Assembly (NCBI GenBank): GCA_019115005.1
Contig: DXEK01000137.1
Location: forward strand, 1-62,612
DNA length: 62,612 bases
Direction: 5' to 3'
Source: Candidatus Fusicatenibacter merdavium
Lineage (GTDB): Bacteria; Bacillota; Clostridia; Lachnospirales; Lachnospiraceae
Below, one piece after another: positions 1 through 4,020 of this stretch; the first letter of the stretch is position 1; every line of letters begins with the position of its first letter. Position numbers and translations under genes: made by a program. The notes under the pieces are model-generated. The model ran no database searches. It had not been told where the DNA came from and was given only the letters and a program-made list of their open reading frames with translations.

Positions 1-130
1 TACGGTTTCATGTATAAATATGAGCCTGAGTTGTCCACAAACATTGAAATTTCAAGGCAAAATAAAAAAATAATTTTCTCTGTTTTGACGAAAAAACGAT
101 GCGTTAAAAACAGGAGTCCTGAACAGTTAC
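1..130. mobile_element. Possible terminus of an IS-like element (AT-rich, ends in TGAACAGTTAC)
   Basis: AT-rich stretch at the window edge ending in a lone arm (120-130) of the dispersed palindrome; no transposase visible. Confidence 0.3.
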
Positions 131-220
131 AAACAAGATTAAAAACACAGATTTTTTTCAAAGATCAGACTTCCGGGGATATGTTATGAAAGATAGGAGC
201 AAAATTTCGGGAGGCGCCGT

Positions 221-343
221 AAAAAAAGGAGGGCCGGGGCTTGGGCCCCGGCAGTTATGAAAAAGAAAAAATGTTATATAAAATGGTGTAATGGCTTCTG
301 AGTAACAACAGTTTGGCTGTTCTGTCGTTCCCTTTCTGTTTAC
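221..343 (-). ncRNA. Putative sRNA, copy 1
   Basis: Minus-strand TATACT at 350-355; 5' AACAGAAAGGGAACGACAGA shared with copy 2; UUUUUUCUUUUUCAUA, 8-bp GC hairpin (233-252), then CCUCC and a U7 tract. Confidence 0.55.
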
Positions 344-349
344 AGATTC

Positions 350-404
350 AGTATACTTGGAAAATATGTTCAGAGTGTGTCCGAATACTGAAGGTTTTGT
401 GAAG
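350..404 (-). promoter_or_regulatory. Promoter with four 11-bp-phased boxes (OmpR-type activator architecture), copy 1
   Basis: Plus strand TGTTC 367, TGTCC 378, TGAAG 389, TGAAG 400; -10 box at 350-355. Confidence 0.55.
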
Positions 405-428
405 ATTTTTTGCATTTTTTCCGGACAT

Positions 429-594
429 GGAGGTGCCGGAGTCCTGTCGGGCTCCGGCATTTGTGAAAAAGAAAGTGATATATGTAAACTTTAATAACAT
501 GGGTGGGGACGGCAATCCAGGAAACACAAAATTTTTTCCGGCGCTTTTCCGACTTGCGCCTGGCTGTAAAACTATCTGCCGTTCCTCTGTTGAT
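429..594 (-). ncRNA. Putative sRNA, copy 2
   Basis: Minus-strand TATACT at 601-606; 5' AACAGAGGAACGGCAGA; CUUUCUUUUUCAC, 11-bp hairpin (434-459), CCUCC; 3' end uncertain (no U tract). Confidence 0.5.
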
Positions 595-600
595 AAGAAC

Positions 601-655
601 AGTATAGAAGAAAAATGTGTTCAGAGTGTGTCGGAAGAATAAAGGATTTCTGAAG
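601..655 (-). promoter_or_regulatory. Promoter with four 11-bp-phased boxes, copy 2
   Basis: TGTTCAGAGTGTGTC at 618-632 is identical to 367-381; TAAAG 640, TGAAG 651; same spacing to -10 as copy 1. Confidence 0.55.
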
Positions 656-690
656 AGTAAATGAAATAAGATAGAAGGAGAACATGGCTT

Positions 691-2020
691 ATGATCAGAC
701 AGGATGGAAACAAAGTATATCGGCGGATGGACGAAGAACTGCTGTGTATTGAACCGTGGGGAGAAAACAGTTTTCGGGTTCGGGCGACACAGCGCCATGA
801 ATTTACCGGGGAGGACCTGTCGGCGTTGCTGCCGCCCGAATCCTGTGAGGTCCGGATCTTCCGGGAAGGAACGGATACAGTGATAGAAAACGGAAAGTTG
901 CGATGTGAGATCACACGGACAGGAAAACTCCGTTTTCTGAATCAGAGCGGAAAACTTTTGCTGGAAGAGTATGAGAGGATCCGCGGAATGCAGGAGGAAG
1001 GGAGAAAAGAGTTCAACAGCGCCCTGGAACTTGTGCCAAGGACATTTGAACCGCATGCGTGTATGGACAATTACCGCCTGACAGTTCGGTTTGAACCGGT
1101 AGACGGAGAGAAGATCTATGGAATGGGACAGTATCAGCAGCCTTATCTTGACCTGAAGGGATGCACCCTGGAACTATCGTTTCTTCCGGGGAGCGGATAT
1201 GGAGGTTGGCAACATCTATCCGAAAGAGTATGCACGGATGGTGTATGAGGGAATGGAAGCTCAGGGACAGAAACAGATTGTCAATCTGCTCCGGTGCGCG
1301 TGGGCGGGCAGCCAGAGATACGGCGCTCTTGTCTGGTCCGGAGATATTGATTCTTCCTTCCGGTCTCTGCGGAACCAGCTTGCTGCGGGACTGAACATGG
1401 GAATTGCAGGCATCGTCTGGTGGACAACGGATATCGGCGGTTTTCATGGCGGAAATATATACGATGAAAAGTTTCATGAAATTCTTGTCCGCTGGTTTGA
1501 ATTCGGGACCTTCTGTCCGGTCATGCGGCTGCACGGGTACCGGGAACCGTTTCAGGAGCCGCTGGGGACAACCGGCGGAGGAAAAACGAACAGCGGAGCG
1601 GCCAACGAAGTATGGAGTTATGGAGAGAAGGTCTATGAGATCTGCCGGAAGTATCTGCTGCTCCGGGAAAAACTCCGCCCTTATGTCCGGGAATTGATGC
1701 GGGAGGCCCATGAGAAGGGGACGCCGCCGATGCGCCCGCTGTTCTACGATTTTCCGCAGGATCCGGCGGCATGGGAGATTGAGGATCAGTATATGTTCGG
1801 ACCGGATCTGATGGTCGCGCCTGTTTTGTATGAAAATATGAGAGAGCGGGAGCTGTATCTGCCGCAGGGAGTCTGGAGCAATATCAATGACGGACAGAAG
1901 TACGACGGAGGCCGCCGGATTACTGTGGCGGCTCCGCTGGCGGAACTCCCTGTCTTTGTGAAGGCGGGAACGCATCCGGAACTTTGTCCGTCGGCTGTCG
2001 GAGGGGCAGACGAAGGATGA
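691..2020 (+). pseudogene. GH31 alpha-xylosidase/glucosidase with internal deletion and frameshift near 1171-1175
   Basis: N-terminal part (YGMGQYQQPYLDLKGCTLEL) joins in another frame to NYRF..DMEVGNIYP..WSGDI..WTTDIGGF..RWFEFG; the nucleophile region is absent. Confidence 0.8.
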
Positions 2021-3344
2021 ATTCTGTTCCGACGCCTTCCAGGCTTTGCACCTGGATCGTTCCATGGTGGGCGCGGACGATCCATTGGACCATGGGCAGC
2101 CCCAGGCCTGCGCCCTGACGGCTGTCGGAGCGGGATGGATCCGCCTGATAGAAACGTTCCCAGATATGGGGAAGATGTTCTTTCGAGATCCCGATGCCGT
2201 TGTCTTTTACTGAGACTTCGGCAGCTTCTCCGTCGGTGTTCATGGTTACCTGCACCCATCCGTGCTCCCGGCCGTAACGGATGGCATTGGTCAACAGGTT
2301 TTCAAACAGGCGGATCATCATCGTTTCGTCGGCGGTCATGGTGACGTCCGGAGCAAGGCGGGACTGCAGTTCTATCTGCTTTTCGCCGGCGTCTTCCTGC
2401 TGCTCTTCGAGAATGATTTCAAGAAGATCCGTCAGGTTTACCTGTTCGAAGTGGAGCGGCTGACGATTCTGGTCGGCGCGGGAGAGAAGGAGCAGCTGCG
2501 CGTTCATCTGTGCCATCCCTTTTGCCCTTGTCTGAATGATCTCCAGTTCCTGCCGGATCTCCGAAGGAAGTGTTTTCTGTTCCAGCAGGTACTCACAGTG
2601 GGACAGGATGACTGCTACCGGTGTGCGCAGTTCATGGGATACGTCGGAAGTAAACTGCCGCTCCCGCTGAAAGGCGCTTTCCAGGCTGGAAAGCATCTGG
2701 TTAAAACATTCTGCCAACCGGTGAAACTCATCGCCCCCTCTGGTCAGAGGGATCCGTTTTGACAGGTCAGAGCCTTCCTGGATTTCCTGAACCGTCTTGA
2801 TCATCGTATTGACCGGGCGCAGGGTTCTGCCGATGAACAGGTATCCGAAAATCGCAGCCAGAATCACCAGCGCGGGAAGAATGATCAGGGAGGTGCGGAG
2901 CAGGATACGCATACTCTGCTCCGCGTCCGAAACTGAGACGATCCCACGCACAAACAGAGAACCGTATCCGTTGATGGTTTGAACGACATCGAAGATATAC
3001 CATCGGGTACTGCCGTCGTCGATGGTCTGGAGGTTTCCATCCTGAAAAGCCGGACGGGCGGAAAAAGAGTAAGGCAGACGCCCGTAAATAAATTTTCCGT
3101 TAGAATCATAGACGGACATATAGATACCGTTATTCACATCCATGATATTGGAATCAATGTAAAGTTCCTGACCGTCGTAGCGAATATCCTCTAGGCTGTC
3201 GTAGACATGTTCTTTGATCTGCTGCTGGACAGAGGAGAGGAGTTCACTGCTGCTGAGGGACAGAAGGATTGCCAGAAGAAGGCAGACAAGCAGTGTCATG
3301 AAAAATGTGTAAAGCAGGGTTAATTTCCATTTGACTGAATGCAA
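1920..3344 (-). CDS. Sensor histidine kinase (HAMP, HisKA, HATPase)
   Basis: Two TM segments; FTSDVSHELRTP; NLLTNAIRY; DNGIGI; GAGLGL. Confidence 0.92.
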   Translation of the reverse strand: MHSVKWKLTLLYTFFMTLLVCLLLAILLSLSSSELLSSVQQQIKEHVYDSLEDIRYDGQELYIDSNIMDVNNGIYMSVYDSNGKFIYGRLPYSFSARPAFQDGNLQTIDDGSTRWYIFDVVQTINGYGSLFVRGIVSVSDAEQSMRILLRTSLIILPALVILAAIFGYLFIGRTLRPVNTMIKTVQEIQEGSDLSKRIPLTRGGDEFHRLAECFNQMLSSLESAFQRERQFTSDVSHELRTPVAVILSHCEYLLEQKTLPSEIRQELEIIQTRAKGMAQMNAQLLLLSRADQNRQPLHFEQVNLTDLLEIILEEQQEDAGEKQIELQSRLAPDVTMTADETMMIRLFENLLTNAIRYGREHGWVQVTMNTDGEAAEVSVKDNGIGISKEHLPHIWERFYQADPSRSDSRQGAGLGLPMVQWIVRAHHGTIQVQSLEGVGTEFILRLPLRQPTDKVPDAFPPSQRQGVPPAEPPQ

Positions 3345-3345
3345 T

Positions 3346-4020
3346 CTACACCTCCGCTTTCAGGACATATCCCGCTCCGCGCACGGTGTGGATCAGTTTC
3401 GGTTCGAAATTCTGGTCCAGTTTTTTGCGCAGATAACGGATATAAACGTCGACGACATTGGAGCCGCCGTAATAGTCATAGTTCCAGATGTGCTGTTCGA
3501 TTTTTTCTCTGGACAGCACGATCCCCTGGTTCAGGATCAGATAGCGCAGTACGGCGAATTCCTTGCTGGACAGGAGAATCTCCGTGTCATCGCGGAAGAC
3601 TCTGTGGGAATCCAGATAGACGGTCAGATTGGCGGCCCGGCAGATATTATCGCTGGCCGCCGTGTTTTTTCTGAGCATGACACGGATCCGCGCCAGCAGT
3701 TCCTCGAAAGCAAAAGGCTTTACCAGATAGTCGTCCGCGCCGGCGTCCAGTCCCGTAACCCGGTCTTCGATGGTATCGCGGGCAGTCAGCAGCAGCACGG
3801 GCACCCGGTTTCCGCCAGCGCGAAGTTCGCGCAGGACGGCGAGTCCGTCTTTTTTCGGCATCATGATATCAAGGATCACAGCGTCATATTCCGCCATTTC
3901 CAGACAGGACAGCGCTTCTTCCCCGTCCAGACAGGCATCGACACTGTAGGAATGTTCTTCCAGCCGCTTTTTCAGCAGGCGGTTCAGATCTTTTTCATCT
4001 TCGGCAATTAAAATCCGCAC
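3346..4020 (-). CDS. OmpR-family response regulator
   Basis: ILIAEDE, LDIMMP, GADDYLVKPF, TVRGAGY. Confidence 0.95.
   Translation of the reverse strand: MRILIAEDEKDLNRLLKKRLEEHSYSVDACLDGEEALSCLEMAEYDAVILDIMMPKKDGLAVLRELRAGGNRVPVLLLTARDTIEDRVTGLDAGADDYLVKPFAFEELLARIRVMLRKNTAASDNICRAANLTVYLDSHRVFRDDTEILLSSKEFAVLRYLILNQGIVLSREKIEQHIWNYDYYGGSNVVDVYIRYLRKKLDQNFEPKLIHTVRGAGYVLKAEV

Follow-up and report, generated by a model that had tools for sequence, protein, structure and literature searches.

Near its beginning, the stretch of DNA analysed here (62,612 nt, hereafter the window, to which all position numbers refer; its own 2.7-Mb genome is G000) carries two similar units in tandem on the minus strand, and the question is what they encode, what switches them on and what they act upon. 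The original prediction held that they are paralogous small RNAs (sRNAs) behind phased activator boxes, and direct reading confirmed its account of the promoters: four boxes with a period of 11 bp stand at 367/378/389/400 and at 618/629/640/651, the minus-strand -10 hexamers TATACT at 350-355 and 601-606 are 251 bp apart, and the 15-mer TGTTCAGAGTGTGTC is identical at 367-381 and 618-632, with no third site in the 2.7-Mb genome when one mismatch was allowed. Copy 1, the downstream unit, has its promoter at 350..407 (-) (matrix score 36.9, the best in the genome) and a predicted sRNA of ~123 nt at 221..343 (-), its start placed 7 nt past the -10. A predicted 5' stem-loop at 300..332, whose loop varies while the arms are kept in 5 orthologues, is followed by the anti-start arm UUUCUUUUUCAU (257..268), a GC hairpin (233..252) and, at 221..232, the anti-Shine-Dalgarno (anti-SD) sequence CCUCC (232-228) with a U7 tract (227-221). 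Copy 2, the upstream unit, has its promoter at 601..658 (-) (matrix score 35.9, the second best in the genome); its predicted sRNA of ~170 nt would run from 594, again 7 nt past the -10, to ~421-425, the 3' end being uncertain. Its predicted 5' stem-loop (501..590, loop length variable among 4 orthologues) precedes an anti-start arm at 463..481 ending in UUUCUUUUUCAC (474-463), a GC hairpin (435..458) and CCUCC (429..433). As originally stated, copy 2 has no U tract; it may read through into copy 1.

The two copies align with an E value of 3e-9 and do have the claimed 3' core in common, that is, UUUCUUUUUCA(U/C), the GC hairpin and CCUCC. The shared 5' stretch is also real, but it is the 5' arm of the first stem-loop, and the supposed unrelated middles are the variable loop of that stem. 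For both RNAs the predicted fold consists of a 5' stem-loop and a 3' hairpin joined by a U-rich single strand, with a fold z of -3.2 for copy 1 and of -0.5 and -0.1 for two partial copy-2 stretches. The tandem pair is conserved in G003, G005, G006 and G008; in G005 the 5' loop of copy 2 has a repeat-like insertion of ~130 bp (L005, G005:C115:7867-8002), with both stem arms intact. A GH31 glycosidase gene occupies window 691-2020; it lies in two frames and, compared with another strain, has an internal deletion near 1171-1175. The gene separates the neighbouring kinase gene from the sRNA pair here, but not in those four genomes. On the other side, window 4-130 is identical to the end of contig C109 and breaks a TTTAAT-box promoter at 130/131, where other strains go on into the -10 of that promoter, as before the PepSY lipoprotein gene of G003 and G005.

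Both units belong to a conserved, multi-copy family of non-coding RNA genes, which so far has at least 149 members and at least 131 distinct cores, mostly of 77-142 nt (median 87 nt). A DNA search gave matches in 13 of 41 genomes and in 9 of 11 within the genus; matches outside the bacterial family, in G034 and G037, were of 22-27 nt only and were taken as chance, and G000:C65 was rejected as a member (E 0.45). A first covariance model, built on the 3' core alone of 15 sequences and not including the promoter, matched 32 of 150 other genomes of the same bacterial family and, run on 63 loci, gave 69 matches. The claim that the 3' hairpin differs in sequence while its pairing is kept was upheld, since each of the 8 pairs varies on both sides and pairing is kept in 98.9% of cells. 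Hairpin covariation reached 0.657, against 0.162 when shuffled and at most 0.123 when slid, figures that amount to no p-value because the alignment was fitted to the model and the members are related. At the hairpin base, GCCGG/CCGGC, the sequence itself is conserved too (65/69 at the first pairs). With a second covariance model a class-wide sample gave matches in 3 of 4 genomes of the bacterial family and in 2 of 146 others; the out-of-family matches (L205, L208) have no promoter of the kind described below and were taken as chance, and the promoter is likewise absent from two family-level model matches (L206, L207) and one convincing core (L095).

GTDB genomes scanned with a pattern yielded at least 121 loci (~830 stretches by estimate). 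Among the matches listed, the named carriers are Hungatella, Lacrimispora, Enterocloster, Robinsoniella, Diplocloster, Eisenbergiella, Faecalimonas and unclassified Lachnospiraceae, and the family is found essentially only in Lachnospiraceae-type genomes. G000 itself carries five members, namely the two of the window, C83:16071+, C83:14525- and C93:43589+. Those on C83 diverge and lie 1.5 kb apart; 14525- sits upstream of a gene that looks Fur/PerR-like by eye, and the same position is seen in G001 (L347). Five loci (L300, L303, L319, L349 and L357) have two anti-TIR modules within one predicted RNA. By crude ORF calls the gene downstream of a member is convergent in 33 of 69 cases, on the same strand in 30 and lacking in 6, and these genes are unrelated to one another. 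A scan of window 1-2000 and 58 further loci against Rfam 15 returned no family at threshold, in agreement with the novelty originally supposed; the best match on a member was CyaR, with 30 bits where 47 are needed, and the scans otherwise gave only tRNA, T-box and sub-threshold matches. We found no description of the family in the literature, where an unnamed candidate among the models or alignments of PMC8040213 or in bioRxiv supplements is possible; the family motif has no match in the supplementary files of PMC8040213 that were examined.

The promoter is independent evidence for the family, since its motif is absent from the covariance model. All 69 members carry it upstream in the same orientation (54 of them had been found by the 3' core alone), and its family-wide consensus is TTCACA-N5-TT(T/C)A-N7-CACA-N7-CACA-N9-TATACT, with boxes that are TTCACA-like on the RNA strand and end 9 nt before the -10. 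The mean leave-one-out score was 36.8 bits, compared with -17.6 on the reverse strand and -18.3 for shuffled sequences, and the real promoter exceeded its controls in 69 of 69 cases. When 121 scorable pattern matches were grouped by record title (2 at contig ends left out), the promoter was present in 80 of the 89 listed from records titled Lachnospiraceae, Clostridiales, Clostridium or Bacillota, and among the matches listed in 0 of 4 from Oscillospiraceae/Ruminococcaceae and 0 of 28 from non-clostridial records. The predicted lack of a canonical -35 holds throughout: TTGACA occurs within one mismatch at the -35 position in 0 of the 149 family promoters listed, and a sigma-70 scan gave no minus-strand site at the two units. 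An ECF-sigma promoter was dropped as a candidate, the spacing fitting a sigma-A -10 with phased boxes. Boxes of the PhoP/ResD type follow TT(A/T/C)ACA and are phased TTCACA-like repeats that replace the -35. The repeats of the four-box promoter resemble them, but the region upstream of pstS in G000 scores -8.5 on the four-box matrix and is absent from the 17 matches given below, so PhoB/PhoP control and membership of the Pho regulon were rejected.

Scanned with a matrix trained without the window's genus, G000 gave 17 matches above 13 bits, against 0.8 with column-shuffled matrices. The top 11 comprise the five family members, one shifted duplicate, two genes of a second sRNA type, both htrA genes and one other; a four-box promoter of 21 bits at G000:C138:930-987 (+) stands before a region without a clear gene. 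Upstream of htrA-like genes the score exceeds 10 in 21 of 30 loci (24 genomes) and does so on the reverse strand in 1 of 30; judged by sequence, the RNA family and htrA share a promoter motif. Moreover, a promoter-only pattern gave 80 matches in 11 genomes compared with 1 in the control, of which 78 were fetched and 76 are distinct, a few of them looking like chance. Thirty-nine of the 76 lead into the RNA family (17 of these outside the training set), 9 into the second sRNA type and several into other short C-rich units (both by eye), 4 into htrA, and one each into genes for FtsH, an Hsp18-like protein, an ABC ATPase and an S-layer-domain protein. The second sRNA type is ~70 nt long, with a short 5' hairpin, a CUCCCCCCUCAU stretch and a terminator, and has the four-box promoter in common with the family; it occurs in G000 at C80:8793- (L017) and C107:5124- (L202) and elsewhere at L310, L323, L332-L334, L336, L341, L359 and L368, with no Rfam match in the 4 loci scanned. 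sRNA genes outnumber protein genes in the four-box regulon.

As for the regulator, the pair next to the sRNA genes, an OmpR-type regulator (3346-4020) and a HAMP/HisKA kinase (1920-3344; together 1920..4020, minus strand), had been put forward as a candidate. It is probably not the activator, because an orthologue of the regulator is present in only 15 of 40 carrier genomes and these orthologues are accompanied by a different box, TTTAAT-N5-TTTAAT plus a -10, in 11 of 15 loci. The element precedes a lipoprotein-like gene in 9 of the 11 loci (with PepSY domains in the one tested), the regulator itself in one and no called gene in one. These orthologues define a small regulon of their own (L369-L383), and their box resembles that of CiaR in form. 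Two further OmpR-type pairs are the best candidates. The regulator at C152:8154-8861 is present in 35 of 40 carriers, and at its orthologues in other families of the order htrA comes right after the kinase in 10 of 20 loci and within ~6 kb in 13 of 20. That at C41:16823-17503, present in 37 of 40 carriers, has the two proximal boxes of the four-box promoter and a -10 upstream in 20 of the 29 loci scored, against 1 of 29 on the reverse strand (one contig-end locus left out); sister families mostly lack it, with any match in 7 of 30 and about 2 close ones. Five genomes, 97-100% complete, lack the C152 pair and have the C41 regulator, two lack the C41 pair and have C152, and G011 (64% complete) shows neither. 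Since the gaps in the two distributions are complementary, both regulators may use the box, which would be the simplest reading. The best NCBIfam scores of the candidates all lie below cut-off, and orthology to CssR, ResD or PhoP is putative.

What the RNAs would act upon is suggested by their two arms. Across the family a conserved anti-start arm (UUUUUCAU) and the anti-SD arm CCUCC flank the hairpin, as the original prediction had it, a conservation that is partly built into the search patterns; among the matches listed, CCUCC is exact in 86 of 131 cores and has one mismatch in 43. The predicted mean unpaired probability is 0.77 for the anti-start and 0.88 for the anti-SD arm. In three variants found by their promoter (L319, L348 and L343) the anti-AUG and a C-rich anti-SD are contiguous, with no hairpin between them. 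The spacer between the arms has a mode of 5 nt (131 cores, among the matches listed), less than the SD-AUG spacing with its mode of 7-8, and a three-way junction may absorb the difference. Cofolding of the five G000 RNAs with the 2,246 called genes that have full upstream sequence yielded predicted junctions of this kind, with the hairpin extruded, and in the cofold optimum 34-67 of the 77 genes that have NTG-AAAAA and an SD are paired with both arms.

The proposal that exported proteins are targeted stood in part. Of 512 post-start 5-mers, AAAAA shows the strongest enrichment among exported proteins (24 of 163 secreted against 49 of 1591, labels that are heuristic and misplace some lipoproteins), and the bias to exported starts is 2-3 fold; but AAAAA is also the commonest post-start 5-mer overall (94 of 2246), and 49 of the 94 NTG-AAAAA genes are called cytoplasmic. 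The top 100 partners of each RNA include 12-21 exported proteins where 7.3 are expected, and for all 5 RNAs the real arms outdo 12 of 12 shuffles; when lipoproteins are taken alone, 0-2 shuffles reach the real count. The bias is modest (AUC 0.60-0.65), and the top-ranked cofold partners are mostly cytoplasmic. All 5 genes that start with ATGAAAAAGAAA look like envelope genes, coding for two lipoproteins, one protein with a signal peptide, one permease and one further lipoprotein recognised by eye, with a solute-binding domain. The arm of copy 2 forms an 18-nt Watson-Crick run (-29.6 kcal/mol) with the start of an ABC-transporter lipoprotein gene, G000:C33:10927. That start is kept in G005, G006 and G008 and was not found in G003 or G001; no sRNA-target covariation was seen at it (5 genomes searched, orthologue in 3), the RNA of G006 being changed at one position of the run and the target unchanged. 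None of the 5 genomes searched yielded Hfq.

Expression data were limited to unstranded metatranscriptome contigs. The contigs of three runs in study P2 stop at 572 (where adapter follows), 580 and 580, falling short of the predicted start of copy 2 by 14-22 nt, and RNA contigs from 245 to 572/580 span both units. The contig of run X9 (245-580) has a depth of 46 with no cover over 594-1097, while two DNA-like runs continue; run X10 of study P3 covers 267-536, and runs X5 and X7 leave the RNA bodies uncovered, a hole in a contig proving nothing. The contigs also run across the promoter of copy 1 and past its U tract, which is consistent with read-through or with DNA. The contig ends, coming from one study, are a weak hint that the units are transcribed. 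Among the matches listed, 92 of 131 members have a U run beginning 5-10 nt past the hairpin, which makes the 3' end and the retention of CCUCC predictions, and a second small downstream hairpin with a U run is present in 44 of 131.

Copies of the family are also borne by phages. In IMG/VR the core pattern matches 55 stretches, 47 of them with an intact promoter. In 41 of 45 wider loci most of the coding is on the opposite strand; these wider loci form 22 clusters by a 40% rule and some are probably host flanks. Seven phage loci that were checked contain terminase, helicase, primase, methylase, HNH or holin genes (31 of 129 ORFs scanned), and intact promoter-plus-sRNA cassettes (among L447-L490) lie within phage replication or early modules, facing against the phage genes. 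In several of these loci a short CTCCT stretch, noted by eye, flanks the cassette on both sides, which suggests cassette insertion at SD sequences.

Starting from what was directly observed, that is, the family, the covariation of its structure, its promoter, the box in common with htrA and the free-standing position of its members, we consider it probable that the units are paralogous sRNAs under an htrA-type promoter, likely activated by a two-component stress system, which would repress in trans at ribosome-binding regions with a preference for mRNAs of exported proteins. An envelope- or secretion-stress two-component system would switch the sRNAs on, its phosphorylated OmpR-type regulator (C41:16823-17503 or C152:8154-8861) binding the boxes in place of a -35. 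The U-rich arm would then pair with AUG-AAA-AA(G/A) of the mRNA and CCUCC with its SD, the extruded GC hairpin making up the third helix of a three-way junction; such pairing would block 30S loading with no need for Hfq, and the load on the export machinery would fall while HtrA removes misfolded protein.

The same sRNAs and regulon could instead serve as a broad damper of translation on any mRNA with a strong SD and an A-rich start, the exported bias being incidental. The frequency of AAAAA among all starts, the many cytoplasmic genes both among the NTG-AAAAA set and among the top cofold partners, and the generic nature of CCUCC speak for it; we nonetheless hold it unlikely, as the real arms outdo their own shuffles for exported proteins, all five ATGAAAAAGAAA-starting genes look like envelope genes and the RNAs would be co-regulated with htrA. 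Slightly less probable again is that the RNAs bind a protein, the U-rich arm and GC hairpin acting as a decoy, or that one arm alone pairs, CCUCC-U being a terminator tail. The hairpin base is indeed conserved beyond what pairing needs, and a hairpin with a pyrimidine tail resembles a terminator, but a terminator would not conserve a C-rich CCUCC between stem and U tract, a separate downstream hairpin and U tract exist in the 44 of 131 members mentioned above (among the matches listed), and so do the variants with contiguous anti-AUG and anti-SD.

Two other readings seem to us very improbable, and equally so. One keeps the mechanism and makes the 1920-4020 pair the activator: in G003, G005, G006 and G008 the pair stands immediately upstream of the tandem, and its orthologue is adjoined by a family member in G165 and by a four-box site in G099, yet its restricted distribution among carriers and its own TTTAAT-N5-TTTAAT box, both detailed above, point elsewhere. 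The other looks to the plus strand, where GGAGG, the hairpin and ATG can be read as an initiation region with a hairpin-bridged SD for small-peptide genes (MKKKKCYIKWCNGF, 257-301), or takes the units for a cis-acting leader or attenuator of the downstream gene. Five close orthologues retain the 14-codon frame; however, across 68 members the opposite-strand frames vary between 5 and 65 codons and share no conserved sequence, it is the minus strand that carries both promoter and U tract, and G-U pairs (66 against 38) favour that strand too. A type I antitoxin or sORF gene was discarded on the same lack of a conserved opposite-strand ORF in the 68 members, and a cis-regulatory leader is disfavoured by downstream genes that are unrelated and often convergent.

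Returning to repression of exported-protein mRNAs in trans, a wider version is conceivable, though we are doubtful of it as a whole: a class-wide export brake in which the RNAs would read the lysine codons of signal peptides and clamp them together with the SD in a three-way junction, letting a stress regulator throttle many exported proteins through an sRNA-dominated regulon, and in which temperate gut phages would repeatedly have captured the cassette, thinning host surface proteins (receptors) or restraining their own early genes in lysogeny. The family would make testable the idea that an RNA recognises exported proteins as a class through signal-peptide codons, and phage copies under a host stress promoter would be a possible route for lysogenic conversion. 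The Lachnospiraceae are among the dominant gut anaerobes, and our literature search turned up neither a trans-acting sRNA nor an envelope-stress regulon characterised in them; the present analysis offers a promoter motif that predicts an sRNA-dominated regulon, named candidate regulators and predicted sRNA-target pairs. The family, its four-box sRNA-dominated regulon, the hairpin-split seed reaching codons 2-4 and the phage copies are new with respect to the literature covered.

The overall design has counterparts in several systems. In enterobacteria, envelope stress acting through Sigma-E or Cpx induces a protease together with sRNAs such as MicA, RybB, MicL, CpxQ and OmrA/B, which cut envelope-protein synthesis; these Gram-negative sRNAs are Hfq-dependent and have target-specific seeds. 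Their protease-plus-sRNA design is similar to that proposed here and their sequence unrelated. In Bacillus subtilis, CssRS exerts two-component control over two htrA genes, and its kinase pair adjoins htrA (PMC12826053); likewise, two htrA genes appear here under shared control, with a kinase pair beside htrA in sister families. The parts of that source drawn on here describe no sRNA family in the CssRS regulon, whereas sRNA genes dominate the four-box one. LhrC1-5 of Listeria monocytogenes are multi-copy, strictly dependent on LisRK and repress a cell-surface protein at its ribosome-binding region (PMC4132741), and LisRK, an envelope-stress system, also controls htrA (PMC12826053). As far as these excerpts go, the present family is alike in being multi-copy, in belonging to an htrA-linked regulon and in its predicted targeting of ribosome-binding regions. 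LhrC has three redundant UCCC sites, in two loops and a linker; in this family such redundancy was not found in the alignment, where the loops are variable and one conserved C-rich site, CCUCC, lies 3' of the hairpin and is joined by an anti-start arm.

The likeness to the streptococcal csRNAs, on which the original prediction had drawn, holds for the logic (multiple copies, an activator-type promoter, anti-SD and anti-start sequences) and fails for the box and the nonamer. The csRNAs of CiaRH are multi-copy, 51-202 nt long, with two stem-loops and some copies in tandem; their promoters have a response-regulator repeat ~10 bp before the -10, htrA is in the regulon and the hosts have no Hfq (PMC3091779, PMC4507080). 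In the features that these accounts set out, the family agrees with them: it is multi-copy and partly tandem, has two stem-loops and a phased regulator repeat, carries anti-SD and anti-start sequences predicted to be unpaired, would share the regulon of htrA by its promoter motif, and occurs where Hfq was not found. The csRNA box, however, is NTTAAG-N5-TTTAAG and that of the family four TTCACA-like repeats; among the 149 promoters listed the former was matched within one mismatch by none and within two by 3, and the csRNA nonamer [A/C]UCCUAAA[A/C] by none of the 131 cores listed exactly and by 6 with one mismatch in its first 8 letters. In csRNAs, as described in the same sources, anti-SD and anti-AUG stand together in an unpaired linker, whereas in the typical member here a second hairpin splits them and the arm reaches codons 2-4; no sequence matches, and the hosts belong to a different class of Bacillota. 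By analogy, then, the design would be of a kind already known from csRNA/CiaRH/HtrA and LhrC/LisRK, at least in the portions of those reports used here (PMC3091779, PMC4507080, PMC4132741, PMC12826053); if the proposed reading is true, the combination of HtrA with sibling sRNAs seen in streptococci and Listeria would have arisen a further time, now with another box and a split seed.
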